Below are positions 11,914-31,560 of a stretch of DNA of 31,560 nucleotides, one piece after another. Under the pieces are notes generated by a model. The model made no database searches, was not told where the DNA came from, and saw nothing but the letters and a program-made list of their open reading frames with translations. The DNA comes from a bacterium (GTDB taxonomy: Bacteria; Bacteroidota; Ignavibacteria; UBA10030). The stretch spans positions 1-31,560 of the forward strand of contig JAZDJN010000099.1 in the NCBI GenBank assembly GCA_043803945.1, given 5' to 3'. Numbering within the stretch: position 1 is the stretch's first letter; each line of letters opens with the position of its first letter. The translations under genes and the position numbers were made by a program.

Positions 11914-12044
11914 AGTTAACGTTCAAGCAAGAACGTAGTGCCGCCACGAGCCATGAAAGACAAATTTCTCCTGCGAAGTGGCGGCATTGAGTGAGCACTA
12001 TAATCATTCTAAAAGAGCGAACTCCGTGGTTGCGATTGTTAGCT
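11914..12044 (-). other. attC site (131 bp)
   Basis: AGTTAAC...GTTAGCT; internal tgccgccac/gtggcggca stem. Confidence 0.8.
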
Positions 12045-12066
12045 GGCGTTGACACGGGAAATATTA

Positions 12067-12279
12067 TTATTCTTTCGTGCTACTCGTTATTGTGTACGTG
12101 TATCCGTATTTCCAACCCTCGCCTCCAGTTCCACCTTTGTAACCAGGTTTTGAGAGCATATCCTTTTCCCAATCACGCGCTTCTTTCTCTGTTGAGAACG
12201 CTCTTTGCCACCAGTCAGAAGGATTTCCGTGTGCTTGCTTACGGCTTACTGAGTCATCTGTTAGTCCAACGTACTTCAT
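12067..12279 (-). CDS. small hypothetical protein (GIY-YIG-like YVGxT..R..H start)
   Basis: 70 aa, AAGGAG RBS, ends just before attC. Confidence 0.7.
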   Translation of the reverse strand: MKYVGLTDDSVSRKQAHGNPSDWWQRAFSTEKEARDWEKDMLSKPGYKGGTGGEGWKYGYTYTITSSTKE

Positions 12280-12299
12280 AGAAACTCCTTTAGTATTGG

Positions 12300-12539
12300 T
12301 TATGAAATTAGTGCAGCATTGACAAACTCATTCTCTTCTTTGTTATGCAAGACGTAAGGGAACATCGGATCATCGCTATTCTCAGATACAACTATTGTAG
12401 CGGTAGGTATCCAAATGCAAACGTCAGGAATATAAAATGGCGAGACCCATCATCGGGAACCATCGTCTGTAACGATTTCTTCGCCATCTTTCAGGATCTC
12501 AAGTAGCATAACTTCTCGAGAGTATTTTGGTTTGTCCAT
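12300..12539 (-). pseudogene. 80-codon cassette ORF with an in-frame TGA
   Basis: MDKPKYSREVMLLEILKDGEEIVTDDGSR*WVSPFYIPDVCIWIPTATIV..LIS*; TGA at 12450-12452. Confidence 0.65.
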
Positions 12540-12591
12540 AAATTTGCTTCCCTCAATACATAGACGATTTCGATTACCGAGTGCTAATGCC

Positions 12592-12665
12592 AGCTAACTT
12601 TTTTGTAAAAACGCATTTCGCATATTACTATATCAATGTTCGCATAGACGCAATGCGTATATTTT
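12592..12665 (-). other. attI-like site #2
   Basis: minus strand AATGCGTTTTTACAAAAAA-GTTAGCT; no attC palindrome; homologous to 18560-18632. Confidence 0.65.
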
Positions 12666-12677
12666 ACACATAAACAC

Positions 12678-12713
12678 AAAAACCTCCTTCATCGCTCGCA
12701 CGAATCCAGAGGT
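12678..12713 (-). terminator. conserved hairpin plus U-tract (platform hairpin)
   Basis: ACCTCTGGATTCG..CGATGAAGGAGGT-TTTT. Confidence 0.5.
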
Positions 12714-12802
12714 TTCTCTTCTCCGCTACCAACTTCACCTGCCTGTGTGTTCACTCGCGGATACCTTTGTAAATTAAACTCCTGCAGAATAAATAGCACT
12801 AC

Positions 12803-14896
12803 TCACTTCGTCAACAACATTTTCCGCGCGGCTCGATACTCTCCTGCTATAAGCGTATAAAGATAGACCCCGCTCGGTAGGTTATTACCGTTGAAGCTCA
12901 CCTCATAGTATCCAGCCTTCTGTTCGGTATCGACAAGTGACATTAGCTTTCGTCCCAACATATCAAAAACCTGTAGCTGCACCCTCACCCCCTTTGGTAT
13001 CGCATATCGGATAATGGAGGCGGGATTAAACGGATTGGGATAGTTTTGAAATAGTACATATTGCTCCGGTATGGATTCTTTTTGTCTAATCCAAGTTGCA
13101 CCATCCGAAGTTGATTTGAGAATTGTTCCATATTGTCCAACTATCCACCCGGTGGTTGGTGAAACGAAATGCACTTTATTAAGATCAAACATAGCTGTAG
13201 ACCAAGTTCCGACCCAGTTGGAACCTCCATTTGTCGTGTTCATAATTTGGCCTCCTAATCCAACGGCGATTCCTTTGTTCGTATCAAAGAAAAATACCGA
13301 ATAAGCAAAATCAGAAATTTGTTTGACCCATGACGTGCCGCCGTTAGTTGTTTTCCAAATACCCGAACCTCCGACAAAGCCAACATCACTATTTACAAAA
13401 TAAACACAATTGCCCTTCGGTGAACCAGTTAATAAAGTCCACGTTACCCCAGCATCAGTCGTTTTGTACGTGGCAGAATTAAAACCGGTACAATAACCTA
13501 CCGTTGAACTGACAAAGAAGACAGAATTACAATCATAATCTGCAACCTTTGACCAGGTGGTTCCTCCATTTGTGGTTCTACTGATGCTCATATAATTAGC
13601 CGATATTCCAACATTCGAGCTTAAGAAAGTAAGCGCTCTTGACGTATAAGAATTTGATTGCTGGGTCCAGGTATCTCCACCGTTTGTGGTTTTATTAATT
13701 ACCCCTTCCCCTCCGATCCAACCTGTGCTTGCATCGATAAAATACACTGACTTCATCGACGGATATTCACCACTTTGTTTCTTCAGCCAGGTTGTACCTC
13801 CATCTGTGGTTTTATATACAACTCCATCATAATTACCCACTCCGCCGACGATATATCCCGTATTTGAATCAATAAAATGAGAAGAATTTATATGAGATGT
13901 GAAACCACTACTTATCGATGACCAATTAAGCCCCCCATTTGTTGTTTTCATTATTCCACCAACTTCGCCAACGGCAATCCCGGTGTTTGCATCCATAAAA
14001 GTAACTGCGTTCAACTGATAAAATAATCCAGCAGAAATCTCAGTCCATGAAGTCCCGCCATTTGTCGTTCGGTAAACATGTCCTGTAGTACGTGAGGATC
14101 CCCATTCTCCACCTACAACAATTCCGGTATTACCATCTTTGAAAAAGGCACCATATAAACTAACAGAAGTGGATGGGAACGTAATTTTTGTCCACGATAC
14201 TCCTCCGTTATTCGATTTGAAGAATGTACCATATTGTCCGACAGAAAAACCATTATTAGCATCTATGAAGTGAATATTGTAATGCTTCCCTGTAAATGTA
14301 CCGGAAGAAATCCACGTGCTGCCATCTGTTGTTCTCGCAATAAGGAAGTCACCTGCAATCCATCCTGTGGTGGCATTAATGAAATAAATCGAAGAGATAG
14401 TACCTATTCCGGTTCCCAAACTTTGTTTTGTCCAATTTGCTCCACCATTTGTTGTTTTATAGAGCTCACCATTATTCCCTCCAACATAACCGATATTTGC
14501 ATCAACAAAGAAAATAGCATTCATATCCCTGTTTATACCGAGACTCTGCAACTGCCATGTATTGCCCCCGTCAACTGTTTTGAAAATAGAGTAATCACCA
14601 ACAATCCAGCCGGAATTTTCATTAATAAATGAAATTGAACTTAGTGGATTAGTTGTCTCTCCTACTACGCCAGGATTCTTGGGAGATGGCAATTTGGCCC
14701 ATGTGGAACCACCATTTGTGGATTTCAGAACTGTACCGTTATCTCCAACAGCTAAGACAAATGTCGAAGTTATATATTTAACTGCCTTTAGGTTGCTATT
14801 CTGCGGTAATGGATTTTGCCAGAACCAACCGCTTTGAGAAAAAAGACTTGAAGAGAAAACTATAAAGGTGCAGAATAAAAGAATCTGATTTTTCAT
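12803..14896 (-). CDS. secreted BNR/YCF48-like beta-propeller with a C-terminal sorting (T9SS-type) domain
   Basis: signal peptide, many (S/T)T(N/D)GG.TW repeats, QNYPNPFNP...LPSGVY. Confidence 0.9.
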   Translation of the reverse strand: MKNQILLFCTFIVFSSSLFSQSGWFWQNPLPQNSNLKAVKYITSTFVLAVGDNGTVLKSTNGGSTWAKLPSPKNPGVVGETTNPLSSISFINENSGWIVGDYSIFKTVDGGNTWQLQSLGINRDMNAIFFVDANIGYVGGNNGELYKTTNGGANWTKQSLGTGIGTISSIYFINATTGWIAGDFLIARTTDGSTWISSGTFTGKHYNIHFIDANNGFSVGQYGTFFKSNNGGVSWTKITFPSTSVSLYGAFFKDGNTGIVVGGEWGSSRTTGHVYRTTNGGTSWTEISAGLFYQLNAVTFMDANTGIAVGEVGGIMKTTNGGLNWSSISSGFTSHINSSHFIDSNTGYIVGGVGNYDGVVYKTTDGGTTWLKKQSGEYPSMKSVYFIDASTGWIGGEGVINKTTNGGDTWTQQSNSYTSRALTFLSSNVGISANYMSISRTTNGGTTWSKVADYDCNSVFFVSSTVGYCTGFNSATYKTTDAGVTWTLLTGSPKGNCVYFVNSDVGFVGGSGIWKTTNGGTSWVKQISDFAYSVFFFDTNKGIAVGLGGQIMNTTNGGSNWVGTWSTAMFDLNKVHFVSPTTGWIVGQYGTILKSTSDGATWIRQKESIPEQYVLFQNYPNPFNPASIIRYAIPKGVRVQLQVFDMLGRKLMSLVDTEQKAGYYEVSFNGNNLPSGVYLYTLIAGEYRAARKMLLTK

Positions 14897-14933
14897 CTGT
14901 GTCTCCTTTCATGAAATAGTGAAGAGCAATTGC

Positions 14934-15071
14934 AACTTACGTGTCAGGCTAAACGCAAGTGCTGAGTAACGCGAAACTATCTTATCTTGTCTTTCCCTTG
15001 CACGAAGCACTTGAGGGTGCACTATAGTAGATCGTAAAGTAAAGCGCCCGTCGATTAGCCGTTTGTTATGT
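14934..15071 (-). other. attC site (138 bp)
   Basis: AACTTAC...GTTATGT; GGCTAA/TTAGCC arms. Confidence 0.75.
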
Positions 15072-15482
15072 GGCTGTGGACGCCAGCAGGTGTAATACTC
15101 GTTGTAGATAATTTCTATTTCGTTGGACGAGCACATCGCTGGATATACACAGCCCGATAACGTTTAATTGTTGATTAGATTACCAAATACAGATGGCAGA
15201 CTTCTTCACCCGCTGGGAGGTCCGAAGTCACGAAGTGATGGCATTCCCAGACTCGACTCCCCGAAGGGGTCCTTCGGACCGGCGAGGAGCTCCAACTCCC
15301 TGCCATAGCGCAACACTAGTTTTTTTCGCATACTAAGTGTTTGTTAGTCATCAAAGTAAGAAGCTCACTGGATATTGATTGATAACCTGCATAAAAGTGA
15401 GAAACGAGAATGAAATCAAAGTATACAATCATCTATAGCACACACGCTATCAATTTTCTAGGAAGAGCTATACCAGCGAACC

Positions 15483-16634
15483 TCAGTCCCTCCAGTTTGG
15501 ACCTATCTTTATAAGCTTTGTGAAGCTCCAGAGCTTCGAGTTGGTAAGGCTGTGATAGACGTCCATTTGCATAGTCGTACCATCCAGTACTACCACTCCA
15601 AACCCATGCGCCGGCTGATCCGTGCCAGCTTCCGGTAACACATAGTTATCAAAATATACCTCCCGGCTATTTTTATCTTTTCCAGCAGCAACCTTATTAT
15701 TATCTATGAGATGTAAATGCCCGGTGAAAATACCGAGAACATTATATGGATTTGCTACTGCGCTCGAGCTCAGTACACGATGATGATAACGCCGGCAGAG
15801 GATATCAAGCAGCAGCTGCCTCATGGTGTCGTTCCACCACCTGGCACTACCGTCGTCATCGAGTTCCGTACTGAACCAGTCCCATCCATAGTGCTGCAAA
15901 ATGAACACACCGTTTCCGGAGTCACCTATACTGTCTCTCAGAAACGCATCCACCCAATTGATTCTATCCCAATCTATGTCTGTCTTGCTTACCGCGTTAC
16001 GGCCGCCAGCCCACAAGCCAAGCGATAGGAAGTAATAATTCCCCCAGCGCCAGGCGTAAGTGGTTGTGTCATACGATGTGATATTCGGCGCACCGATGAT
16101 CCGTTTTTGCAGATATTGAGGCGCATCGCCATTACTTGGAAAAGAATTGTTTGTAGAATTTGATACATCATGATTGCCTATATTTGGAAACAAAGGAAAT
16201 TTGATACGATGCGAAACAGGAGTGGTTGACAGGTCGTCTTCATAATAATCGCGGAAATCATTTATGTGATAATGGACAGAATCACCACCTTGCAGCATAT
16301 CACCCATATGGAGTACACCGAGAATGTTAAAATCCTGTCCACGATCATTTACGTGTCGAACTGTTTCATCATTGGCATTTGCTGACCGACCGATATGCGT
16401 ATCGGTGATTATGCCGAAGGCGATTCTCATGGGGTCTGCCGGCACATGAACTTTAATCTTATTCGGTGTGTGTGGAGGCGTCGCCCTGGGTGGCGTAGCA
16501 TCTCCAGGTGGCTCCGAACTTGGATTCTCAACACGACAGGCGATAGGCATTATCAATGAAAGAATAGCCAATATTATGCTGGCAAATTTAAGTAGGTCCT
16601 GATTGCTGACCAATTTTCGGCGATGATCTATCAT
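15483..16634 (-). CDS. calcineurin-like metallophosphoesterase, probable lipoprotein
   Basis: TDTH, MGDM, GNHD, QHYG, GHLH motifs; hydrophobic leader ending in PIAC; RBS AAAGGAG before ATG 16634. Confidence 0.85.
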   Translation of the reverse strand: MIDHRRKLVSNQDLLKFASIILAILSLIMPIACRVENPSSEPPGDATPPRATPPHTPNKIKVHVPADPMRIAFGIITDTHIGRSANANDETVRHVNDRGQDFNILGVLHMGDMLQGGDSVHYHINDFRDYYEDDLSTTPVSHRIKFPLFPNIGNHDVSNSTNNSFPSNGDAPQYLQKRIIGAPNITSYDTTTYAWRWGNYYFLSLGLWAGGRNAVSKTDIDWDRINWVDAFLRDSIGDSGNGVFILQHYGWDWFSTELDDDGSARWWNDTMRQLLLDILCRRYHHRVLSSSAVANPYNVLGIFTGHLHLIDNNKVAAGKDKNSREVYFDNYVLPEAGTDQPAHGFGVVVLDGTTMQMDVYHSLTNSKLWSFTKLIKIGPNWRD

Positions 16635-16921
16635 ATTGTCATCTCCTTTTGTGACACTCCAGTAATATTTAATCAATGAAGTTACGCAGATGATATAACC
16701 ATAAGTGAAATACGGTGGCATATTAGTCTGCCACGAAACGACTAATGTTTCAACCGGTTTTATTCACTTATGTGAATGCAATCTGTTAAAAGTGATTCGC
16801 TCATACTCCTGGCAGTGGATCGCATCCGTAGAATCCATTGCTCAGATCAACTTGCGTAACTTCAGTACCTAACAAATCTTTTGTAGACTTGCACTACTAC
16901 GTGCCTGCTGGCGGACATGCC

Positions 16922-17187
16922 ACATAACGTTTGAGTGTTTGCGCTTGCCCCGAACTTGTCCCGATGCATTGTATCGGGATGTTATTTATCGGGGCCGTTC
17001 AGTGCCGCCACTGCAACGATCCATTACTATGGCGGTATGAAATGGAGCGCTTGTCCGCCATGACTCACCTTTTGGTGGAAGCGCAATTGACAAACCATTA
17101 TTTAGGTTCTTATTCGACATAACCAAACGAGCGAGCCTGCCCACCGAAACAGAGTGCAGGTGGGCGTCGCAAGCACGATTGTTAGGT
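16922..17187 (-). other. attC site, unusually long (266 bp), with nested palindromes
   Basis: ACATAAC...GTTAGGT; GTGTTTGCG/CGCAAGCAC arms. Confidence 0.75.
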
Positions 17188-17244
17188 GGTCGTGCCCCGC
17201 CGTAGGAAGCAAATATGTTCTGCAAGAGTTGGTTGCCAAGCGCA

Positions 17245-17709
17245 CTAGTGTGGACCTCCGATCGCTGAGAGAGACTTATTAGTTCTTCTCTTGTTGAGAT
17301 AACCGAACACGGCACCGAAACCTAGGAATCCAACCAACTGATAGAGTATCCAGAATACCTGATCGGGAACATTGACTGAACCGTAGACAAGAGGATGCGA
17401 CAAATTCCACAGCGTTGTGAGCAACCAGAACGAGAATGCATATTTCATACCATCGATGACTCCGGTCAACCTCCTCGAAAGCGGTAGTATTTCGTAGGCA
17501 AAGACGAACAGAATGCCGAAGAGCCAGCCGATAAGTAATTTCGTCCAGATGAAGTAGAATGCGTTTAACTGTTCAGCACTAAACTTGCCAGGTGGAGCGA
17601 ACTGTGGGCCGTAGACAATCCTTGAGAGTATCGCCCCTCCAACGAACAGGAAGATTCCAAAAGCAAGTCCTGAAATTGTTCCGTCAATAGCGACCTTCTT
17701 GAGTTGCAT
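17245..17709 (-). CDS. membrane protein (~4 TM), cassette paralog 2
   Basis: hydrophobic segments; 28 differences in 154 aa from 18007-18471 by manual count. Confidence 0.8.
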   Translation of the reverse strand: MQLKKVAIDGTISGLAFGIFLFVGGAILSRIVYGPQFAPPGKFSAEQLNAFYFIWTKLLIGWLFGILFVFAYEILPLSRRLTGVIDGMKYAFSFWLLTTLWNLSHPLVYGSVNVPDQVFWILYQLVGFLGFGAVFGYLNKRRTNKSLSAIGGPH

Positions 17710-17797
17710 GAAAGGATCTCCTTTCAAATAAAAATGATTTGTGGCAGTGTGTCTGATGCCGAAAGAACTAGTCTGCTACCATGCGGCGGGGCATGCC

Positions 17798-17951
17798 GCC
17801 TAACGTTTAGGCAAACCGCCGTTGCGAGCCGCCACTATGACTGATCCAATTTCGTGGCGGCGAGCAATGGAGCGAGCTCTTTACATTGAGCCAATCTGAG
17901 CTTCGACATTGCCTATCAAATGTGCGAGCGTCGGTTTGCCGATTGTTAGGC
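17798..17951 (-). other. attC site (154 bp)
   Basis: GCCTAAC...GTTAGGC perfect cores; GGCAAACCG/CGGTTTGCC arms. Confidence 0.85.
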
Positions 17952-18006
17952 GGTCGTGCCCCGCCGCAGAGAAAAAAGTAATGTGTAAGAGTTGGTTGCG
18001 TATGCA

Positions 18007-18471
18007 TTAGTGTAAACCTTCTGTCGTTGGGAGGACCTTTTGAGCCCTTCTCTTGTACAGATAACCCAGCACAGCACCAAAACCTAGGAAGCCAACCAAC
18101 TGATAGAGTATCCAGAATATCTGATCAGGGACATTGACTGAGCCGTAGACCAGAGGGTGAGACAGATCCCAGAGCGTGATGAGCAACCAGAATGAGAGTG
18201 CGTATTTCATTCCGTGGATTGCTCCGCTCAACCTCCTCGATAACGGTAGAACCTCGTATGCTACGGCAAACAGAATACCGAAAAGCCAACCGATTAATAA
18301 TTTCGTCCAGATAAAGTAGAATGCATTCAATTGTTCGGGAGTGAACTTGCCTGGAGGTGCGAATTGCGGTCCATAGATAATCCGTGACAGCACCGCGCCT
18401 CCGAAAAACAGGAAGCAACCCATAGCGAGTCCTGCAATTGTCCCGTCTATGGCGACTTTCTTGAGTTGCAT
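18007..18471 (-). CDS. membrane protein (~4 TM), cassette paralog 1
   Basis: AAAGGAGG RBS; first cassette after the attI-like site. Confidence 0.8.
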   Translation of the reverse strand: MQLKKVAIDGTIAGLAMGCFLFFGGAVLSRIIYGPQFAPPGKFTPEQLNAFYFIWTKLLIGWLFGILFAVAYEVLPLSRRLSGAIHGMKYALSFWLLITLWDLSHPLVYGSVNVPDQIFWILYQLVGFLGFGAVLGYLYKRRAQKVLPTTEGLH

Positions 18472-18559
18472 GAAAAGACCTCCTTTCAAATAACCATGAT
18501 TTGTTGTAGAGAGCCCGTTGGCTGAAGAACTAGTGCGCCACCGTACGGCGGGGCATGCC

Positions 18560-18632
18560 GCCTAACATTCATGTAACAACGCATTGCGTTTATTCCATCT
18601 AAATCGTGATGAAATATGCAATGCGCATATTT
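18560..18632 (-). other. attI-like site #1
   Basis: minus strand AACGCAATGCGTTGTTACATGAAT-GTTAGGC with an upstream GCGCATTGC repeat. Confidence 0.65.
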
Positions 18633-18645
18633 CGCTTAAAGACAC

Positions 18646-18681
18646 AAAACCTCCTTAATCACGCATCGCGAATCCAGAGGT
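18646..18681 (-). terminator. conserved hairpin plus U-tract (platform hairpin)
   Basis: ACCTCTGGATTCGCG..GATTAAGGAGGT-TTTG. Confidence 0.5.
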
Positions 18682-18707
18682 CTTTCTTTCACTGGAAATA
18701 TTTTCAA

Positions 18708-18825
18708 GAGTTGCACGGTTTACTCCTTCGGAAGTACACTTAATCCTTCCCCCTGGAATGCCCCAGCACGGTACTTAAGGGATAACTGTTGGTGAAAAGG
18801 TAGATATGTTTAGCAGTATAGTCAA
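18708..18825 (-). promoter_or_regulatory. sigma70 promoter plus conserved ~75-nt leader, copy 1 (candidate Pc)
   Basis: TTGACT (18825-18820)-17 bp-TACCTT (18802-18797), then the conserved leader. Confidence 0.7.
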
Positions 18826-18862
18826 CAACACAAATCTACCAACAACAAATAGACTTATTGAT

Positions 18863-18898
18863 AAAAACCTCCTTCATCGCCAAAGCGAATTCAGAGGT
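18863..18898 (-). terminator. conserved hairpin plus U-tract (platform hairpin)
   Basis: ACCTCTGAATTCGCTTTGGCGATGAAGGAGGT-TTTT. Confidence 0.5.
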
Positions 18899-19037
18899 CT
18901 TCTTCTCCGCTACCAACTTCACAACTCTGAGTGTTCGTTAACGGATTACCGAATCAAACATAAACTATTCTGTAATAAAACGCACTATGGACGGAGCGAG
19001 AAAACTTCCGACTCTATATATCTCCGGGTCGAGTGTC

Positions 19038-20303
19038 TCAAACTTTTTCCTTGACCACTTTTGCTTCTTTCAAGAGTTTATCAGTATGCACCATGCCAAA
19101 TCCGGGAGCTGTAGGTACATTAAGAAGGCCGTCCTTCACCATTATAGGCGGGTCAAAGAGTGGACCGGTTTGTTCAATTCCGCTTTTTAATTCTTGGAAC
19201 TTACCCATATTCGGCGTGAAACTAAAAAAATTCACCATGTCCGCAAATCCTGTATTGCCACTGGAAATATGTGTCGTGATGGGTATTTGTGCCGCGGCAG
19301 CCATTCGCGCAATCCTTGTCGTGCGAATATATCCGCCATAATAATGTAAATCCGGTTGAACGATTCTTAAGGCTTTGTTCCTGATCATCCAGGCAAACCG
19401 ATATTCGCTCGACTCCTGTTCGCCTCCGGATACCGGAATGGTGAGGGCGTCGGCAACCTGCTTGGTGGAATCAAGATCATCGAATGGGCATGGTTCTTCA
19501 AAAAGATAGGCGTTAATAGCTTCCAGTCGTTTACCGACCTCGATAGCTTTGGAGACATCGAACGAACCGTTGGCATCGGCCTGGATAGTGATTGAATCTC
19601 CCAACACTTTTCTAGAGAGTTCAATGAGATCCTCCGAACGATTCGGCATGGAATCTCTGTTACGGCTCATTCTTCCGCCTACTTTGAACTTCACTGCCTT
19701 CGCACCGGTCTCGGTGATTCGTTGTTGAAGAATCTTGACCTCTTCTACCGGCGTGGTTTCGCGGTTCCCGCTTGCAACATAAATAGGGACTTTATCGCGG
19801 ACCTTTCCGCCGAATAAGACGCTGATATGTTGGTGAGCTGTTTTTCCCAGCATATCAAGAATGCTTGCTTCCACCCATGCGACACAGCACCAAAACGGCA
19901 ATCCCTGCATTTTATAGTTGCTGTCATAGACATAGACGCCATCTAATAACGTTTCGAGGTCGCGTGCATCCTTCCCGATGAAGAATGGAATTACTTGTTG
20001 GAGGAGCATGGGATACAGGAAACTGATTTTTTCATTTGTCATGAAAAGCCCGACCGCTCCATCCCTGGATCGGGTGCGAACCAAAAAGAACCTGCCGCTT
20101 TTCAATAGGTTGATCGATTCGATGATGACCGGGCTTGTGAGAGACTCCAGATGAAGAACCGGTTTATTTGCCGCTGCCATCAGTGCATCATGTTCTTGAA
20201 GAGAAGAATCTCTGGAAGAACCAACGGTTGATACAGTTGAAAATGGAATGAAGAGAGACGTTGAAAGAGATGTTCTAAGAAAATGACGACGATTGAAATT
20301 CAT
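19038..20303 (-). CDS. mandelate racemase/muconate lactonizing enzyme family protein with a Tat signal
   Basis: NRRHFL leader; KFK, DANG, FEEP, GGEQE, QPD motifs. Confidence 0.9.
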   Translation of the reverse strand: MNFNRRHFLRTSLSTSLFIPFSTVSTVGSSRDSSLQEHDALMAAANKPVLHLESLTSPVIIESINLLKSGRFFLVRTRSRDGAVGLFMTNEKISFLYPMLLQQVIPFFIGKDARDLETLLDGVYVYDSNYKMQGLPFWCCVAWVEASILDMLGKTAHQHISVLFGGKVRDKVPIYVASGNRETTPVEEVKILQQRITETGAKAVKFKVGGRMSRNRDSMPNRSEDLIELSRKVLGDSITIQADANGSFDVSKAIEVGKRLEAINAYLFEEPCPFDDLDSTKQVADALTIPVSGGEQESSEYRFAWMIRNKALRIVQPDLHYYGGYIRTTRIARMAAAAQIPITTHISSGNTGFADMVNFFSFTPNMGKFQELKSGIEQTGPLFDPPIMVKDGLLNVPTAPGFGMVHTDKLLKEAKVVKEKV

Positions 20304-20366
20304 ATATACCTCTAATAGAAATATTTATGCCGTTTATCGACGTCGATAACCACAATTCGTTCTCAG

Positions 20367-20482
20367 GAGCTGCACGGTTTACTCCTTCGGAAGTACGCTT
20401 AATCCTTCCCCACGGAATGCCCCAGCATGGTACATAAGGAATGTGTCTGAAGAAATGTAGAAATGTTTGGCAGGAGAGTCAA
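20367..20482 (-). promoter_or_regulatory. sigma70 promoter plus conserved leader, copy 2
   Basis: TTGACT (20482-20477)-17 bp-TACATT (20459-20454), then the conserved leader. Confidence 0.7.
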
Positions 20483-20616
20483 TAACGCAAACAGGTCAAT
20501 AGCCGAGAAGCATGTGCTTTTTCTCAGGTAAACACCTGAACACTAAATGGCGTGAATAGAACTTACTATAGGAGGCGGTTTATAAATACCTACTCTGTAC
20601 GTAAAAAAAGTCGTCG

Positions 20617-20645
20617 TTGATTAACCGGAATCATATTATTATATT
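20617..20645 (+). promoter_or_regulatory. candidate sigma70 promoter for the GIY-YIG/tRNA unit
   Basis: TTGATT-17 bp-TATATT. Confidence 0.5.
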
Positions 20646-20740
20646 GTTTTTGAAGGAAGTGAAGCCATTAGACAAGTGGTTACTAATAGATCATTTCAAA
20701 AGGTTTTTAGAAAGTGTCGGATCATCAAGAACCTTAAGTT

Positions 20741-20831
20741 TCATCGGGACGTAGCGCAGTTCCGTTCCGCTCTCAGAGCGGGACGAGAATCCACGTCCCG
20801 AATGAAATTCGGGACGGGACCCGGAAGCGCA
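20741..20831 (+). pseudogene. duplicated 5' fragment of tRNA-Pro with a palindromic insert in the D-loop
   Basis: TTCATCGGGACGTAGCGCAG identical to 21071-21090; resumes CCCGGA-AGCGCA after a ~60-bp insert. Confidence 0.75.
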
Positions 20832-20835
20832 AAAG

Positions 20836-21099
20836 ATGTCATATTATGTCTATATCTTGCGGAGTAAAGTATCGGGTCAGTATTATGTGGGACAGACAGA
20901 TAATCTCCTATCCCGTGTAGAGAAACATAACAAGGGTGAAGTGCAATCAACAAAACCATTTCGTCCTTGGGAATTAGTTCATTGCGAAGAATACCAAACT
21001 CGCGGTGAAGCTGTAAGAAGAGAACGAGCAATAAAGGCAAAGAAGAAAAGAAAGTTTATTGAAGAACTTATTCATCGGGACGTAGCGCAGCCCGGATAG
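20836..21099 (+). CDS. small GIY-YIG nuclease
   Basis: YYVYIL..YYVGQT..R..HN.G..TK..RPW..A..RE..IK; stop codon lies in the tRNA D-loop. Confidence 0.9.
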   Translation: MSYYVYILRSKVSGQYYVGQTDNLLSRVEKHNKGEVQSTKPFRPWELVHCEEYQTRGEAVRRERAIKAKKKRKFIEELIHRDVAQPG

Positions 21100-21150
21100 C
21101 GCACTTGCTTGGGGTGCAAGGGGTCGCGGGTTCAAATCCCGCCGTCCCGA
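21076..21150 (+). tRNA. tRNA-Pro (GGG)
   Basis: acceptor CGGGACG/CGTCCCG, anticodon arm CTTGC-TTGGGGT-GCAAG, T-loop GGTTCAAATCC; CCA not encoded. Confidence 0.95.
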
Positions 21151-21372
21151 CTTCCAACTTGACCGGACTTAGTGAGCGAAGCTAAGTTCGCTGTCAAGTT
21201 GAGAATCTCGACATGCTGTTGGTCGGGATCTAACCATATATAGGACCTTTTTTTAAGCTCAGGAGTAATCTCTTGAGCTTTTCTTTTGTAGGGGTGTCCC
21301 GCCAAACTGCGGCCGGATCCTGAAATATCAATCGTGCTGAGTCAATCGATGATCTCCAATCGGAGCGCAAGT

Positions 21373-21524
21373 ACACCTCGTGATAGATTCCAAACAACGA
21401 CATTTTGGAATCACTATTATTTTCTTTTAAGAAATACAGAAATCCCTTAGTGATCCTCGAATGACTCTGTCGAGGATCTGCTATACGGAGCAACAAAACA
21501 CCTCGTGATAGATTCCAAACAACG
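21373..21524. repeat. 27-bp direct repeat
   Basis: ACACCTCGTGATAGATTCCAAACAACG at 21373-21399 and 21498-21524. Confidence 0.85.
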
Positions 21525-21664
21525 GCCCGCCTGTGCAGATACTTCAGTGGCAGCCGGGGAGCACCAAGAGAAAAGAGAATTGATAGATATTTAAATACGT
21601 AAGTGTAAATGAATGGTATCTACTCAGTTCGTTTAGTGCTCCTACAGTTTTCGCTTATCTTTTT

Positions 21665-21714
21665 GAGGCTGACTAAAAAGTTGGTCGAGCAGGCTGCTCG
21701 ACCTACAAGACTTA
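21665..21714. repeat. second copy of the GGTCGAGCAGGCTGCTCGACC palindrome with a MITE-like end
   Basis: closely similar to 1505-1554. Confidence 0.7.
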
Positions 21715-21786
21715 ACATCCGTTCATTATCTTATCCCAAGAGAAACAAAAAGGAAACCAAATTATACTTTTGGCGAACATGCTGAG

Positions 21787-22452
21787 TTATAACACAACGT
21801 TATTTAAATATTCCACTGCCTCATGGGCATGTGGTGAAAAGAAATCAGCGCCAATTTTAGTGCAAAATTTTTGCGTGATTGGAGCGCCGCCAATCAATAT
21901 TTTTGTGTCGGGATAAGTTTTCTTAATGGCTATGACGCTATTTTCCATATTGCGCATTGTTGTTGTCAGTAAAGCAGAAAGCCCTATAAAACAACCTGGG
22001 TGCTTGGCAAGTGCATCCAAAAATTTATTGGTCGGTACATCCACGCCAAGATCGATCACTTCAAATCCGCCGCCTGTGATAATCATGGAGACAAGATTTT
22101 TACCGATGTCATGCAAATCGCCGGAAACGGTTCCAATCACAAATTTGCCTTTGCGTTTCACCTCACCGGATTCCAGGAATGGCTTTATATGTTTCAACAC
22201 AGCATTCATTGCTCCGGCAGAAACGACCAGATTGGTCACGAACGCTCTATTCTCACTAAATTCTTTCCCGATCTTTTCCATCCCCAGCATGCAACCCTCT
22301 AAGAGAATATTCGGGTGAATGCCTTTCTTTAACGCATCGGCAGCAACCTCATCAGCGCCGTCTTGATCTTTCATATCCGGTGGAAAGGGTGCTGATTTGG
22401 AAACTTTACCTCGAGCGATGCACATCGCAATTTTTTCAACATACTCTTGCAT
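21787..22452 (-). CDS. corrinoid (B12-binding) methyltransferase protein
   Basis: GDLHDIGKNLV (DxHxxG), DLGVDVP, GLSALLT, GGAP. Confidence 0.92.
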   Translation of the reverse strand: MQEYVEKIAMCIARGKVSKSAPFPPDMKDQDGADEVAADALKKGIHPNILLEGCMLGMEKIGKEFSENRAFVTNLVVSAGAMNAVLKHIKPFLESGEVKRKGKFVIGTVSGDLHDIGKNLVSMIITGGGFEVIDLGVDVPTNKFLDALAKHPGCFIGLSALLTTTMRNMENSVIAIKKTYPDTKILIGGAPITQKFCTKIGADFFSPHAHEAVEYLNNVVL

Positions 22453-22463
22453 AATCCCTCTCT

Positions 22464-23360
22464 CTAGTTTGTTATAGTTAATCCTGCTTCTTTTATAATA
22501 GTCGGAGTGATACTTTCCCACATCACAGGCATTAAGTGGATGCCTCGAACTCCATGTATATTTTTAAGCGTACGAATAATTTCAACGGCCATTTTAACGC
22601 CCTCTTCTTTAGGATCGCGCGCATGGTTCATTCTGTCAATATATTCGTCCTTGATCTTAATGCCAGGAACTTCTTCTCTCATCCAGAGCAGCGTTTTTAC
22701 CGATCGTACAGGCATAACGCCAGCGAGGATCGCCGTTTTTTCATGCAGGCCCATTTCGACCACTTTTTCCATCCACCGGGTGAAAATCTCCAGGTCAAAG
22801 ACAGGCTGTGTTTGAATGAAATGCACACCGGCCTTGATTTTTTTATACAGACGAATTAATCGCATTTCAAACGGTTGAGCAAATGGATTCGCCGCTGCAC
22901 CGATGAGAAAGTCAGGTGCTTTTTTCATTTCACAACCGGAAAGCAAAAAACCGTCGTTCATCTTAGCAACGGCAGCAATGAGCTGAATGGAATCAAGGTC
23001 AAAGACTCCTTTAGCTTCGGGTTGGTCGCCAAATGTTTGATAGTCGCCGGTCAGGCAGAGCACATTCCGGATCCCTAACGCTGCGGCTCCTAACAGATCA
23101 CTTTGAATCGCCAGTCTGTTGCGGTCCCGGCAAGTTACCTGCATGATCGGCTCAACGCCTTCGTCTAATAAGATCTTCGCTGAGGCCATACTCGACAACC
23201 GAACAATCGCTTTCTGGTTGTCGGTGATATTCACCGCATCAACATAGCCCTTGAAATATTTTAATTTCTCCCGGAGAACATCGGCATCACAGCTTTGCGG
23301 CGGGCCGATTTCTCCGCAAAGAATAAACTGATTCGATTCAATTTTCTGTTTCAGCGTCAT
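22464..23360 (-). CDS. metF: methylenetetrahydrofolate reductase
   Basis: AVNITDN, TCRDRNR, LTGD, FIQTQPVFD, GIHLM. Confidence 0.92.
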   Translation of the reverse strand: MTLKQKIESNQFILCGEIGPPQSCDADVLREKLKYFKGYVDAVNITDNQKAIVRLSSMASAKILLDEGVEPIMQVTCRDRNRLAIQSDLLGAAALGIRNVLCLTGDYQTFGDQPEAKGVFDLDSIQLIAAVAKMNDGFLLSGCEMKKAPDFLIGAAANPFAQPFEMRLIRLYKKIKAGVHFIQTQPVFDLEIFTRWMEKVVEMGLHEKTAILAGVMPVRSVKTLLWMREEVPGIKIKDEYIDRMNHARDPKEEGVKMAVEIIRTLKNIHGVRGIHLMPVMWESITPTIIKEAGLTITN

Positions 23361-23817
23361 TAGAAATCATGTCCTTCACTTTTTGTTTATCATTGCGAAC
23401 GAACCAGATCGGTGCTTTAATTCGCTTTTTGAATACATTCAGCCACGACGATGTACCTTCCAGATTCCAGTTGTGGATTTTATTTATCGTATATAACAAG
23501 CTGATGCGATTCAACAGTATTGACCGATAATATATTTTGTACCATACGCACTTTCGATCAGGATACACTTCACACGATCCATCCTCGCCGGTTCCCCCGC
23601 ATGGACCATTGCGCAGCCGTTTTGGACAATTCTGGGAACAGATAAATGCGGTCGAGGATAAGATGCACTCGCCGCAATGTTGACACCGAAATAACGGCAC
23701 TTTGATAAGGTCTTCAAAAAAAAGGATAAGACGTGAGAATTTTCGTTCGTTTGCTGTAATGGGGGGTTTGTTTAAAGCGGCTAAGTCTTTTGACAAAGGT
23801 ATTTCCTTGTAGTTCAA
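23338..23817 (-). CDS. MTHFR small Cys-rich subunit (MetV-like)
   Basis: CQHCGEC..C..NCPKRLRNGPCGG..CEV..CVW; overlaps the metF start. Confidence 0.85.
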   Translation of the reverse strand: MNYKEIPLSKDLAALNKPPITANERKFSRLILFFEDLIKVPLFRCQHCGECILSSTAFICSQNCPKRLRNGPCGGTGEDGSCEVYPDRKCVWYKIYYRSILLNRISLLYTINKIHNWNLEGTSSWLNVFKKRIKAPIWFVRNDKQKVKDMISNDAETEN

Positions 23818-23916
23818 TTATGCCTGAGAAGTGCTTTTTTGTCTTTCAGCGAAAAGCATTCATCAATCATGCAATTTCATTTCACACAATTCACATCCAT
23901 TAAATTCGCTGGCGGT

Positions 23917-24789
23917 TTAAGAATAATACATCATCACTCTCATGATAGCGTCAATGCCTTCCAGTTTCAACACATCGTGTAAACATTGCATCGCTGGAGC
24001 ATCATCTGTCAACAGTGAGTATTTTCGTTTGACAGAACCGATGATGGTGTTCAATCCCAGTGGCATTGCCATAGTCAGAAATGCATTTTCCAGCGGGCCT
24101 TTCACCGGCGAACCGTCTGCCTTCTTGGAAGGCAGCATTGCTGTAAAATTACTCAATCCAACCGACATGTTGACACCGCTAAGATCTTTATCCTGATGAA
24201 TCAGCGCCATCGCATCCATGAGCCGCTTAAAATCTCCTTTAGAATCACTCCCGATCGGCATGATGCCGGGATCAAGAACGAGTTGCTCGTTCACCAGATG
24301 GTGTATCCGTTTTCGTGCGATGCTCACCATGAATTTCGCCGTAGCATAGATTTGTTCGGCTGATTTATTCATGATCATTTCACCGGAATCATCCATTCCT
24401 TCCGTGACAAGTAAAATAGGAATGAACGGTTGATTTGCATACATGTCAAACATTTCCAGGCGTGCTTCAGAAATTGAATTCAGAATCGGCTTTCGATTTC
24501 CAGCACGTTTAGCATTGTAAGCTTCCAACCCTGCAGCCGCAATTCCCGGATCAGGGGTATCTATTGAAAGCGGGAGCGAAATATGCTCTTGAATTTTTTT
24601 AATAACTTCTGCCATAAAGCCCGGAGAGCGGGGTCCAACATTTACATCAATATACGCCGCACCATTTTCTGCCTGCACTTTAGCCAAATCAACAATGCCA
24701 TCAATGTTATTTTCTTCAAATAATGTGTGAGTGGATGGGACCGAGTCATTAATGGATTCACCGATGATAGTAAGACCAGGGATACTCAT
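23917..24789 (-). CDS. pterin-binding methyltetrahydrofolate:corrinoid methyltransferase (AcsE/MetH pterin domain-like)
   Basis: IIGESIN, YIDVN, LSIDT, ILNS, LDPG, GLSNF. Confidence 0.85.
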   Translation of the reverse strand: MSIPGLTIIGESINDSVPSTHTLFEENNIDGIVDLAKVQAENGAAYIDVNVGPRSPGFMAEVIKKIQEHISLPLSIDTPDPGIAAAGLEAYNAKRAGNRKPILNSISEARLEMFDMYANQPFIPILLVTEGMDDSGEMIMNKSAEQIYATAKFMVSIARKRIHHLVNEQLVLDPGIMPIGSDSKGDFKRLMDAMALIHQDKDLSGVNMSVGLSNFTAMLPSKKADGSPVKGPLENAFLTMAMPLGLNTIIGSVKRKYSLLTDDAPAMQCLHDVLKLEGIDAIMRVMMYYS

Positions 24790-24990
24790 TCACTTACCTC
24801 CTTCACAAAACATTTAGAAAAAAATCACCAATGAGTTTAGGTGGCTTCCAGACAAGATGGCGTTCTCACTTCTTCATAAATCATCCATCAAGTGCTTAAC
24901 ACCATGGTATCTACGATTCAACACATTTGTAAATATCAAAGTGTGTCACAAATCCAGAGGTCTATCGTTCAATGGAATTATTCTTTTCAG

Positions 24991-25106
24991 AAGTTGCTCG
25001 GTTTACTCCTTCGGAAGCACGTTTAATCCTTCCCCACGGAATGCTCCAGCAGTGTACTTAAGGTATGATTCTGGAAGAATGTAGAAATGTTTGCCAGGAT
25101 AGTCAA
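24991..25106 (-). promoter_or_regulatory. sigma70 promoter plus conserved leader, copy 3
   Basis: TTGACT (25106-25101)-17 bp-TACATT (25083-25078); followed by half of the platform hairpin at 24951-24963. Confidence 0.7.
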
Positions 25107-25187: not shown

Positions 25188-25224
25188 AAAAAAAGCCGTC
25201 ACCAACAGTGTTGATGACGGCTTT
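25188..25224 (-). terminator. intrinsic terminator (copy of the atpG terminator)
   Basis: AAAGCCGTCA..TGACGGCTTTTTTT. Confidence 0.8.
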
Positions 25225-25243
25225 GAAGAACTGAAGTCCCTTC

Positions 25244-25516
25244 CTATCTGGCTTTTTTCAAGGCCTCGGCACCGCTGACGATCTCAAGAAGTTCTTTGGT
25301 AATGGCTGCCTGGCGGGCGTTATTAAATTTCAATGTCAGCACCCGGATGAGATCTTTTGCATTTTCCGTCGCATTATCCATTGCGGTCATTCGTGCACCC
25401 TGTTCAGCAGCATTCGATTCAAGCAGAATGCGCCACGCCTGATAGTTAAGGTGCCGCGGGATCAGTGCACTGACGAACTCGACGCTTGAAGGTTCATAAA
25501 TATATTCCACCTGCGC
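25244..25516 (-). pseudogene. atpG: duplicated 3' ~90 codons of atpG
   Basis: aligns to 28040-28312; 4 aa differences plus several synonymous changes. Confidence 0.92.
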
Positions 25517-25700: not shown

Positions 25701-27368
25701 TTACTTCTTCTTTATTTCTTCCTTCAATCGCTTGATGTGGCCACGGCCTAATCCTTTTACTTCACAACCATATTCCAGATACTGCTTGATTTTATCATCA
25801 GTCAGAATTCCATAGCAATCAATTAATGCGAATGGTTGACCAACCCATTTAATAATTTCTCGAGGATTAAGTCTAACATACGGTTCGTGCGGAACTGCAA
25901 GTATGAGCGCCTCGACTCCTTTCAATGCCTTGGCCAGATCCTTCTGAACATGAATAGACGTCAGTCCTTCCTGATTTCTGAAAAATCGCTTCCAGGAATA
26001 CCCGACTGCTGGATATGTATCTTGATCCTCCAATTCAGGCCAGTGATCTACGTACGGATCGTGTACATGCAGATCAGCTCCCATTTCAGCCAATTTCCGA
26101 ACGACAAGTTCGCTGCCACTGTAGCGTGTATCACCTACATCCTGTCGATAGCTTGCCCCGCAAAGGAGGACATTTGCTGATGCGATATGACGCCCCATAT
26201 TCCGTAGTGCATCACGTGTTAGTTCAGCAACGTGTAATGCACGCATATCATTTATATCGATAGCATTCGGTGTAATTTTGAAAATTGAATCTCCATCTTC
26301 AAATCCGAGTATGTGCTGATACGCCCAGTAACCAAGTCCTCCATCCTTCGGAAGACAGTATCCGCCAATTCCGGGTCCTGGAAAAATAATGTTATTGTGT
26401 GTTGGGCGCATTTTTATCGCTTTGATGATCTTGATCAGATCGATGCCGTTTCGTTCGGCGAAAAGGCTCCATTCGTTTAGGAAAGCTAAAATTGTAGCTC
26501 GATATGAATTCTCAACTATCTTTGTTGTTTCCGATTCAATGGGGCGATCCATCACGGTTAATGGAAATTGCTTTGTGTTTAGTACTTCGTGTAAAAATTT
26601 TTCAACTCGGTTTCGTGCTTTTTCATTACACCCAGAGCAGACACGCCAGAAGTCGCGGATGCTGGCAACGTACTCTCGACCGGGCATCACACGCTCAAAG
26701 CTATGCGCAAGTAAAGGCTCAGAGTTGATACCACGGATAGCAAATGCTTTCTTGAGAATTGGCCATGCGATATATTCGGTAGTTCCAGGTGCAACGGTTG
26801 TTTCGATCAGGACGAGACACTCTGGTGAAATATTATCACCGATAGTCCTCATTGTCGCTTCGAGCGCTGACATATCTGCTTCACCAGTGCGCATATTGCC
26901 GAGCTCTTTTTTCAGAAAATCGCATTGTACATCGACCACGACACAATCAGCAAGTTTGAGGCATTCGCTATTGAAGGAAGCTATCAGTGTCTTCTTCTTT
27001 TTTACACACCTCTCAATGATTTGATCGACTTCTGGATCTTCTGCTTTGACAGGAGAAATACCACGGTTAAAGTACTTAATTTTCCAGTAACTTCGTGTAC
27101 TTGGTCTTTGATACCCGATAACAAATTTGCTTGGCCTCTTTTTATCATCTACAGAGTCTGCAATGATTGCTGCCATGACAGCACCCACAAAACCAAGTCC
27201 CACTACCACAACAATTTCTTTTCCTTCTTTGCGGGCTTGCTCTACTTTCGCTGCAACTTTCTTATATTCTTCATTATAGCTCGTTTTTTTTGGCAATCTG
27301 AATTTAATATGCGATGGACTAATAGAGATTTTAGGAATGACTCTTTTGGAATCGGTTTTGATTGACAT
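25701..27368 (-). CDS. nucleotide-sugar dehydrogenase (UDP-glucose/GDP-mannose dehydrogenase family)
   Basis: GLGFVG, ETTVAPGTT, ERVMPG, PGPGIGGYCLPKD, HDPYV. Confidence 0.9.
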   Translation of the reverse strand: MSIKTDSKRVIPKISISPSHIKFRLPKKTSYNEEYKKVAAKVEQARKEGKEIVVVVGLGFVGAVMAAIIADSVDDKKRPSKFVIGYQRPSTRSYWKIKYFNRGISPVKAEDPEVDQIIERCVKKKKTLIASFNSECLKLADCVVVDVQCDFLKKELGNMRTGEADMSALEATMRTIGDNISPECLVLIETTVAPGTTEYIAWPILKKAFAIRGINSEPLLAHSFERVMPGREYVASIRDFWRVCSGCNEKARNRVEKFLHEVLNTKQFPLTVMDRPIESETTKIVENSYRATILAFLNEWSLFAERNGIDLIKIIKAIKMRPTHNNIIFPGPGIGGYCLPKDGGLGYWAYQHILGFEDGDSIFKITPNAIDINDMRALHVAELTRDALRNMGRHIASANVLLCGASYRQDVGDTRYSGSELVVRKLAEMGADLHVHDPYVDHWPELEDQDTYPAVGYSWKRFFRNQEGLTSIHVQKDLAKALKGVEALILAVPHEPYVRLNPREIIKWVGQPFALIDCYGILTDDKIKQYLEYGCEVKGLGRGHIKRLKEEIKKK

Positions 27369-28017: not shown

Positions 28018-28039
28018 CCTGAAGAATAAGAGTCCTTCC

Positions 28040-31440: not shown

Positions 31441-31560
<120 letters not shown>

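Follow-up and report, generated by a model that had tools for sequence, protein, structure and literature searches.

An integrase-less cassette array from an Ignavibacteria bacterium contains two attI sites and members of two genome-wide families of non-coding modules

In class 1 integrons (attI1 with its promoter Pc and ORF-11), cassettes enter a double-stranded site that has repeated boxes upstream and ends in GTTRRRY; insertion takes place at G|TT and the cassettes are transcribed from one upstream promoter. The Ignavibacteria locus described here resembles them in each of these respects, its transcription being predicted. Unlike attI1, however, its attI sites have no adjoining integrase gene, number about 6-7 copies per genome and have a 95-nt leader plus a terminator-like hairpin between them and the promoter. 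The short ORF after the hairpin is not conserved, and to our knowledge the attI box sequences are unrelated to those of attI1. Arrays of attC sites without a neighbouring intI, termed CALINs in IntegronFinder analyses, are defined from attC alone and are described there as degraded or split integrons, on which distant integrases in the same genome may still act (PMC4889954, PMC9024848). Integron surveys detect arrays through attC and canonical IntI rather than attI (PMC4889954), which is unknown for most integrons and so falls outside IntegronFinder searches (PMC4889954, PMC9024848). The present locus shares the attC array without intI, but differs from CALINs as those two reports describe them in that intact, conserved attI sites and their own promoter-leader are kept, with two heads in tandem. 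Attachment sites within arrays are known from the 'delta-attI-type' of attI-bounded cassettes, in which a gene lies between an attC upstream and an attI downstream (PMC12901181). The counterpart here is a 697-aa gene followed by a hairpin and the attI at 12598; whereas the cassettes in that report belong to class 1 and 2 resistance integrons with IntI1 (PMC12901181), this array is chromosomal and carries the hairpin module on its attI.

The arrangement of promoter, structured leader, terminator-like hairpin and co-oriented gene, with the terminator as the default fold, is that of attenuators and riboswitch expression platforms. In reverse of riboswitch classes, the terminator is the conserved part here and the upstream leader the variable one (three types in this genome, others in relatives), and no Rfam family was matched. 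XerS with difSL and XerH with difH are single Xer recombinases whose target site lies beside the gene. An Xer-like recombinase of this genome likewise lacks the IntI insertion and adjoins a conserved site, but attC-type cassettes come after that site and the gene occurs in just 22 of 60 relatives and so does not belong to a core system for dimer resolution.

The window (the whole stretch of 31,560 nucleotides that was analysed) had been described beforehand as carrying a repeated non-coding platform of promoter, leader, hairpin and attI-like site, stacked downstream of atpG. All of the parts listed in this preliminary description are present on the minus strand at the positions given there, and each part of the complete unit was recovered:

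18825 to 18560, minus strand: complete unit A, with promoter (18825-18797), leader (18792-18697), hairpin (18681-18649) and attI core (18566-18560), where the first cassette begins

The single stacked platform did not hold up. It is a composite of three separate modules, namely promoter plus leader, terminator-like hairpin, and attI, which genome-wide also occur apart and in varied combinations, and the hairpin and promoter-leader families also head many unrelated non-cassette genes. We lean, if only slightly, towards reading the window as a CALIN with two orphan attI docks and two genome-wide non-coding modules, in which a recombinase would act in trans and the hairpin would gate read-through.

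The attI-like sites are true integron cassette entry sites, as had been claimed:

18560-18646, minus strand: attI of unit A, with box 1 at about 18632-18612, box 2 AACGCAATGCGTT at 18590-18578 and core GTTAGGC at 18566-18560
17805-18565, minus strand: cassette 1, a 160-aa membrane-type ORF (18489-18007) plus attC
17951-17798, minus strand: attC of cassette 1, with R'' GCCTAAC (17951-17945), L''/L' GGCAAACC/GGTTTGCC and R' GTTAGGC (17804-17798)
12592-12680, minus strand: mid-array attI, with boxes plus CGAAATGCGTTTTTAC and core GTTAGCT at 12598-12592
11914-12597, minus strand: first cassette of the second array, with 5' end TTAGCTGGC complementary to its own R'' GCCAGCTAAC (12047-12038) and R' GTTAACT at 11920-11914

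G|TTAGGC (18566) and G|TTAGCT (12598) mark the exact starts of the cassettes, the 5' end of each being the complement of the R'' box in that cassette; GTTAGCTGGC at 12598, for example, is complementary to GCCAGCTAAC at 12047. This complementarity of first cassette and R'' was also found on contigs C14, C15 and C114. Both attC that were read consist of imperfect inverted repeats in the order R''-L''...L'-R' with R' of the form GTTRRRY (the one at 12047-11914 reads (GCC)AGCTAAC ... GTTAACT), and further attC-like repeats lie down the array (D5, D7, D15). With two attC fully read and no intI in 31.5 kb, the window has the composition by which CALINs are recognized (at least two attC, no intI nearby). 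The attI type comprises two palindromic ACGCAATGCGT-like boxes, TTTTAC, 5-7 nt and GTTAKGY, and homologous sites ending in GTTAKGY are present at 6 loci in the genome. A hairpin lies at most 140 nt upstream of every orphan attI with an intact core (6/6), fused to its 5' side as a conserved composite with the same junction in the relative G018.

No integrase gene lies in cis to attI in the window, in agreement with the preliminary description: the TIGR02249 profile, searched at E<=0.001, hit nothing on the contig of the window, and a domain search detected no recombinase domain in any of the 20 largest window ORFs. The search for a trans-acting intI that had been recommended yielded candidate recombinases encoded elsewhere in the genome. 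On contig C5, the attI type is situated 64 nt past the gene of an Xer-like tyrosine recombinase and is followed by attC cassettes. Among relatives, 20 of 23 loci have a GTTA[GT]N[CT] core no more than 140 nt from the stop codon of the recombinase gene, versus 60 of 460 control windows, and in 10 of 15 such loci the first cassette has its R'' complement. Its presence in 22 of the 60 relatives marks the C5-type gene as accessory. The recombinase beside this attI type lacks the ~40-residue IntI insertion, a feature that sets integron integrases apart (PMC4889954), and scores 214.9 bits with TIGR02249, the cut-off of which is 265. Pieces of a canonical IntI were located on C45, C70 and C41 (113.6, 131.9 and 75.5 bits), adjoining a different attI. 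In G018, hairpin-attI sites of this type occur without any C5-type recombinase at E<=1e-70.

Promoter and leader were found three times in the window, the copies at 20482-20356 and 25106-24980 having been correctly reported as recurrences:

25078-25106, minus strand: promoter-like site of copy C, TTGACT-17-TACATT, found by promoter scan and conserved over 11 copies
24980-25075, minus strand: type-1 leader of copy C, 103.3 bits with model R1, heading the methyltransferase operon
24789-21787, minus strand: operon of pterin methyltransferase, MTHFR and B12-binding genes (domain search), behind leader copy C
20523-20540, minus strand: small upstream hairpin TTCAGGTGTTTACCTGAG, far 5' end of the extended unit, copy B
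20454-20482, minus strand: promoter-like site of copy B, TTGACT-17-TACATT, found by promoter scan
20356-20451, minus strand: type-1 leader of copy B, 108.4 bits with model R1, heading the MR_MLE gene
20303-19038, minus strand: MR_MLE (enolase-superfamily) gene (domain search), behind leader copy B
18797-18825, minus strand: promoter-like site of copy A, TTGACT-17-TACCTT
18697-18792, minus strand: type-1 leader of copy A, 111.2 bits with model R1

Compared with copy B, copy C is 85% identical (E 2.6e-37) and copy A 82% identical with gaps (E 1.4e-31), with E-values from a search of the whole 5.5 Mb genome, and in several copies the similarity extends to about -207. The genome holds 11 promoter-leader copies, whose cores are 88-91% identical and whose flanks are about 70-80% identical; searches of other genomes returned no copy of the module, and the leader could thus be a young repeat and not a sensor. 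Covariation was detected in only 1 of 18 pairs of the leader fold, among 11 near-identical copies. The simple promoter scan missed copy A, the -10 hexamer of which is weak, and returned 31 promoter-like sites in the region against 24.9 +/- 5.3 in shuffles. Since this count is no higher than in shuffles, the promoter call rests on conservation across copies. The copies diverge from each other by at least 15-18% and are therefore not assembly duplicates of one sequence.

The enolase-family gene and the methyltransferase operon, which had been taken for non-cassette cargo recruited near the hairpin, are ordinary genes joined to the promoter-leader at variable breakpoints, with no fixed-site capture. 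At these non-cassette loci the similarity to complete units stops at +1, +5, +8 or +33 to +37 after the leader, and neither the gene nor the operon has an attC, their ends bearing ordinary terminator-like hairpins.

Three hairpins and one half hairpin lie in the window:

24946-24962, minus strand: half hairpin, the 5' arm GACCTCTGGATTTGTGA alone with the 3' arm absent; repeat D12
18867-18946, minus strand: type-2 GA-rich flank plus hairpin (18898-18867), 139 nt past the enolase-family stop; repeats D9/D10; 57.1 bits with R2
18649-18681, minus strand: leader hairpin A, ACCTCTGG...GGAGGT, with outer stem, GGAU/UGAA internal loop, inner stem and U-run; 58.3 bits
12682-12762, minus strand: type-2 flank plus hairpin, 89 nt past a 697-aa BNR / Por_Secre_tail gene (14896-12803); repeats D9/D10; 68.5 bits

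The half hairpin thus follows promoter and leader before the methyltransferase operon, and hairpin plus attI stand in mid-array at 12713-12592, both as previously noted. The enolase unit was described correctly as to the promoter and leader before the gene and the hairpin after it; this hairpin was not displaced from unit B, since it has the type-2 flank of the mid-array copy rather than the type-1 spacer. The family has 24 matches in the genome, and a search of 40 relatives detected it in 12 at E<=0.01 and in 9 at E<1e-4. With an alignment that had been fitted to the model, pairing holds in 94% of cells against 88.9% in shuffles (0 of 500 shuffles reach 94%), falls to 48-63% when the partners are slid, and shows compensatory change in 9 of 14 pairs. 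The conserved stem with its U-run and covariation resembles that of an intrinsic terminator or attenuator, termination and its relief being predicted; the U-run is asymmetric and, like the A-rich 5' flank, conserved. Of the 24 copies here, 21 share their orientation with the nearest downstream ORF, as do 16 of 17 loci of relatives; with the upstream ORF, only 9 of those 17 do. Seven of the 24 copies lie 7-139 nt past a co-oriented ORF and could be plain terminators. A search of the window with Rfam 15 at gathering scores returned only tRNA and a group II intron domain, and at E<=10 the interval 18550-18960 gave three chance-level matches only.

In the mechanism that we propose, a recombinase encoded elsewhere would insert and excise cassettes at the docks, the candidates being the C5 enzyme, which lacks the IntI insertion, and the canonical IntI of C45/C70/C41. 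Transcription would begin at the conserved TTGACT-17-TACNTT promoter and proceed through the leader to the hairpin, which, terminator-like and formed by default, may gate it in a default-off state. The first cassettes, or an adjacent ordinary gene, would then be expressed on read-through only. The enolase-family gene and the methyltransferase operon may have gained their promoter-leaders through duplication or illegitimate recombination and not by site-specific capture. A wider version, which we put forward tentatively and consider doubtful, is that this family of Ignavibacteria has a distributed integron, in which one accessory Xer-like recombinase without the IntI domain serves the attI beside its gene and about six satellite docks across the chromosome, each fused to the same attenuator hairpin that also gates some 17 other accessory genes, and that cassettes thereby come under one shared regulatory signal.

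Some small RNAs typically come as multi-copy families, and promoter, leader and hairpin might together form such a family of stand-alone genes (type 1 of about 150-165 nt, type 3 of about 95 nt) that end at the hairpin terminator and act in trans, for instance via CUCCU/ACCUCU anti-Shine-Dalgarno-like stretches, their adjacency to attI being chance. The minimum-energy folds of the 12 full leaders all end in the strong hairpin followed by the U-run, and in several copies a small hairpin 5' of the promoter gives the layout of a self-contained gene. We nevertheless judge this unlikely: in 37 of 41 cases the hairpin points the same way as the nearest ORF downstream, with mixed orientations upstream, 4 of 11 promoter-leaders have no terminator or half of one and lead straight into genes, and the hairpin also occurs directly after ORFs without any promoter-leader. 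The high copy numbers (24 and 11), the hairpin at all six intact orphan attI and three hairpin copies just downstream of phage-type integrase genes (C103, C48, C39) would suit modules that act as DNA, whether as REP/MITE-like or recombination-prone repeats spread by a hairpin-handling enzyme or as recombinase accessory sites within attI, with the promoter- and terminator-like features incidental. REP-type elements occur in both orientations, whereas the orientation of these modules strongly follows that of the gene downstream, and terminal inverted repeats were not seen by eye at the unit ends; the conserved U-run and A-rich flank, and the scarcity of hairpins at recombinase-adjacent sites (1 upstream match in 26 loci), also speak against this reading, which we think improbable.

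The unified platform of the preliminary description, seeded downstream of atpG and stacked, with cassettes entering at attI and non-cassette cargo at another site close to the hairpin, has in its favour the three promoter-leaders and three hairpins within 12.5 kb downstream of atpG, the conserved hairpin-attI composite and the parallel with attI-bounded cassettes of mobile integrons (PMC12901181). It is highly improbable all the same, as atpG matches the window only and 8 of 11 leaders and 21 of 24 hairpins lie on other contigs without an atpG match; the variable junctions, the type-2 flank of the post-enolase hairpin and the ordinary, attC-free ends of the presumed cargo count against it as well. 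The parts do occur all over the genome, and while their link to atpG fails, that to attI partly holds.

If the CALIN reading with trans-acting recombinase and hairpin-gated read-through is true, integrase-less arrays can retain intact, multiplied docks with their own promoters, and CALINs therefore need not be debris. An attI-linked recombinase family without the IntI hallmark domain would likewise mean that tools demanding that domain miss such integrons, and, should the C5-type recombinase really move attC cassettes, the definition of the integron integrase would widen. On this reading, too, the hairpin would be a new and well-supported structural motif, carried in the 5' leaders of numerous accessory genes of an uncultured lineage, and a concrete target for work on regulation. 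RNA-library contigs from one run matched the window only at 20652-21090, in one 33-nt piece and at 18305-18477, the last lying in the cassette 1 ORF with 0 differences.

Each of the elements listed in the preliminary description was re-found in its place. The window makes up the entire contig C99 of a 5.5 Mb genome assembled in 118 contigs, and its main features are arranged as follows.

Features of the window in minus-strand reading order
28939-28040, minus strand: atpH, atpA and atpG, the first genes in this order
25701-27368, minus strand: UDP-glucose/GDP-mannose-dehydrogenase-like gene (555 aa), between two copies of the atpG end
25488-25189, minus strand: duplicate of the last 300 nt of atpG, 91% identical
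minus strand: promoter-leader copy C, then a pterin-methyltransferase / MTHFR / B12-binding operon
21076-21151, plus strand: tRNA-Pro(GGG)
minus strand: promoter-leader copy B, then an MR_MLE enolase-superfamily gene, then a hairpin
minus strand: promoter-leader copy A, then a hairpin, an attI-like site and cassettes
minus strand: 697-aa BNR / Por_Secre_tail gene, then a hairpin, a second attI-like site and further cassettes

The preliminary description had read these parts as a single stacked unit tied to atpG. Our analysis separates them into three families, namely the promoter-leader, the hairpin and the attI-like site. The three promoter-leaders of the window can be aligned over approximately 135 nt, copy C being 85% and copy A 82% identical to copy B. 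Of the 11 copies of the promoter with its 95-nt type-1 leader in this genome, the window has three, and the other eight lie on further contigs (C4, C25, C114, two on C35, C103, C15 and C81). Since sequence matching atpG was found in the window only, the promoter-leader unit is not tied to that gene. Among eight relatives, ffh directly follows atpG in seven, while in this genome ffh is located on C85; the window DNA downstream of atpG is therefore a lineage-specific insertion. The position of the modules behind atpG is incidental. In the eight relatives, the 1.5 kb to each side of atpG yielded no tRNA gene. The duplicated 300 nt of the atpG 3' end, terminator included (27985-28284 and 25189-25488), flank the dehydrogenase-like gene, and the downstream one is a disrupted 3' remnant containing one TGA and one TAA. 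Group II intron domains V/VI (31441-31520, minus strand; Rfam match of 54.2 bits) are located immediately upstream of atpH at the window edge. On C85 (about 43000-43060), a conserved leader hairpin, (A)CTTCCGAAGTC...GACTTCGGAAGTTTTG, stands behind the ffh promoter and is kept at four relatives' loci (L093, L094, L097 and L101), representing a second terminator-like hairpin in a 5' leader of this lineage.

A covariance model of the type-1 leader (R1), searched with the stricter filters, matched none of 100 relatives, and with the filters off it found no leader upstream of the relatives' hairpins. Scanning genome_contigs and metagenome_contigs, collections from which this genome's own records are possibly absent, for the exact pattern of the core likewise gave no match. 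Rfam holds no family for the leader or the hairpin, and the consensus fold of the leader gained no useful support from covariation. A coding function for the leader was ruled out by one-base indels in four of the 11 cores. The conserved AAGGAG-N6-GTG was also rejected as the start of a leader peptide: the reading frame varies from 10 to 38 codons, its stop can precede the hairpin, fall within it or follow it, and the start codon is missing from one copy.

The hairpin is a more widespread family, composed of an A-rich flank, ACCUCU, a GGAU/UGAA internal loop, a variable inner stem, AGAGGU and UUUUUGUG. This genome contains 24 matches (23 strong and one weak), and among 40 relatives it was detected in 12 at E<=0.01 and in nine at E<1e-4, with a maximum of 11 copies per genome. 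In an alignment of 43 copies, which had been fitted to the model, 94% of cells were paired versus 88.9% in shuffles (none of 500 reached 94%) and 48-63% when the partners were slid out of register; nine of the 14 pairs displayed compensatory change. Three kinds of sequence precede the hairpin: the long type-1 leader in seven copies, a type-3 arrangement in five copies in which the type-1 promoter is followed at once by the AAGGAGUNAACCGUGCNNCUCCUG hairpin, and GA-rich type-2 or other flanks in the remainder. The nearest downstream open reading frame is co-oriented with the hairpin in 21 of 24 cases in this genome and at 16 of 17 relatives' loci, whereas the upstream one is co-oriented at only nine of the 17, which indicates that the hairpin belongs to the gene behind it. 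Ten such downstream genes share no function (PAS/GAF, WD40, DUF5694, Big_7, TPR and five without a family). An antiterminator pairing of leader GCGAATC with hairpin GATTCGC, noticed by eye in C25b and C102 and involving one covarying base, was set aside because these two copies are close kin and count as one event.

Each attI-like site consists of two palindromic ACGCAATGCGT-like boxes, TTTTAC, 5-7 nt and GTTAKGY. The core is intact in six copies of this genome, each with a hairpin no more than 140 nt upstream, and is 2-3 nt too short in a seventh on C4. Cassettes begin exactly at the G|TT of these sites. The cassette at 12597 has the 5' end TTAGCTGGC and GCCAGCTAAC in its own attC, and a textbook attC (GCCTAAC, 4 nt, GGCAAACC ... 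GGTTTGCC, 5 nt, GTTAGGC) closes the cassette at 18565. The proposal that classical cassettes are recruited at these sites is thus upheld, and judged by sequence the orphan sites, or docks, are working-type attI sites, two of them in tandem in the window. A strict attC finder returned 35 sites in the genome and only one in the window, making it too strict for cassette counts; a relaxed version also performed poorly. The first two cassettes (17245-17727 and 18007-18489, minus strand) encode paralogous 160-aa proteins without a Pfam family, their DNA being 81% identical over 300 nt. The lower array carries defence or modification-type cargo: an HsdM-type N6 DNA methylase (3782-4897), a truncated-looking Fic/SoFic protein (6872-7459) and an EVE-domain protein (9899-10858), all on the minus strand.

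The window contains no recombinase gene, in agreement with the earlier claim that an integrase is lacking in cis. Searched for elsewhere in the genome, intI was recovered as pieces split over contig ends, and a separate Xer-like tyrosine recombinase was located on C5.

Recombinase genes outside the window
C45 13792-14076: canonical IntI, N-terminal part
C70 58758-59042: canonical IntI, second copy of the N-terminal part
C41 2315-1569, minus strand: canonical IntI piece
C5 7497-8513, plus strand: Xer-like recombinase gene (relatives' loci L105-L129)

The attI of the canonical IntI differs in sequence from the window type and has its own TTGACA-17-TATAAT promoter. A window-type attI is found on C5, 64 nt past the stop of the 338-aa Xer-like recombinase gene, and is followed by attC cassettes. 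Homologues of this recombinase with 48-62% identity are present in 22 of 60 relatives. Twenty-three loci extend 60 nt or more past the recombinase stop, and 20 of them have a GTTA[GT]N[CT] core no further than 140 nt from it, versus 60 of 460 control windows. The box before the core is often the same as the window type (for example AAACGCAATGCGTTTTTACAAACGTTAG in G030), and the complement of the first cassette's R'' was found in 10 of 15 recombinase loci within the available DNA. The IntI insertion of some 40 residues is absent from the C5 recombinase, whose TIGR02249 score of 214.9 bits falls under the cut-off of 265; its score of 224.3 bits with NF040815 ("site-specific tyrosine recombinase/integron integrase") exceeds the cut-off of 220. 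No canonical IntI above the cut-off was detected in relatives G030 and G033. Another relative, G018, has window-type docks and a canonical IntI with no Xer-like recombinase at E<=1e-70. Tools demanding the IntI domain would label arrays behind the Xer-like recombinase integrase-less. The hairpin was rejected as a leader of the recombinase gene, being upstream in one of 26 loci (G005), with one weak intragenic match besides. The IntI frame on C41 is broken by an 86-aa GIY-YIG ORF (1971-1711), and in relative G084 (L129) a GIY-YIG-like ORF immediately follows the Xer-like recombinase.

The closest known systems are the attI with Pc of class 1 integrons, leader terminators, CALINs (PMC4889954, PMC9024848) and attI-bounded cassettes inside arrays (PMC12901181). 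Word searches of the open-access literature found no description of orphan attI sites that are multiplied and have leaders of their own, or of Ignavibacteria integrons headed by an insertion-less recombinase. According to Loot et al. (10.1101/2022.09.11.507474), cassettes can insert outside att sites; the docks of this genome are conserved and do not correspond to random GTT targets.

Capture of non-cassette cargo near the hairpin, the other proposed route of entry, was not supported. In copies without a full hairpin, similarity to complete units ends at +1 (C25), +5 (copy B) and +8 (C35_39k), and in copy C it ends at +33 to +37, within the hairpin. The hairpin after the enolase gene, formerly assigned to the unit of copy B, lacks the type-1 spacer and carries a 46-nt type-2 flank 80% identical to that of the mid-array hairpin. 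No attC was found at the enolase gene or the methyltransferase operon. These variable breakpoints, the type-2 flank and the missing attC fit a regulatory module that was duplicated and joined to genes by illegitimate recombination rather than second-site capture. The final ~38 codons of a diverged intI are joined to copy C35_39k, and three copies lie immediately downstream of phage-type integrase genes (C103, C48 and C39), so the modules travel with mobile DNA. The operon directly behind copy C (21787-24789, minus strand) is a corrinoid-dependent methyl-transfer set of four genes: a pterin-binding methyltransferase, an MTHFR C-terminal-like protein, MTHFR and a B12-binding protein. A G+C-rich terminator-like palindrome, GTTGGTCGAGCAG(G)CTGCTCGACC, occurs at 1519-1547 and again at 21683-21703, the copies having a flank of ~69 nt in common at 80% identity.

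Predicted folds of all 12 full leaders contain the hairpin and its U-run and, together with the orientation bias, favour a hairpin-gated promoter. Transcripts from the promoter would stop at the hairpin unless some signal permits read-through, which would then reach the first cassettes or the adjacent gene. Rivals to this gating are a stand-alone small RNA, a DNA-level repeat and the unified platform of the preliminary description, whose interpretation was borne out in part: cassette entry at attI and the lack of a cis integrase stood, and the atpG link, the unity of the platform and second-site capture were not supported. An RNA library (X1), in which 5% of sampled words were found, matched 18305-18477 (cassette 1) and 20652-21090 without differences; these matches speak to presence in the library only, not to starts or ends, and X1 being assembled contigs, uncovered leader stretches are uninformative on leader transcription. 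The X1 contig spanning 20652-21090, between promoter-leader B and tRNA-Pro(GGG), is 450 nt long, shows 0 differences and ends within the tRNA gene with 11 unmatched letters.
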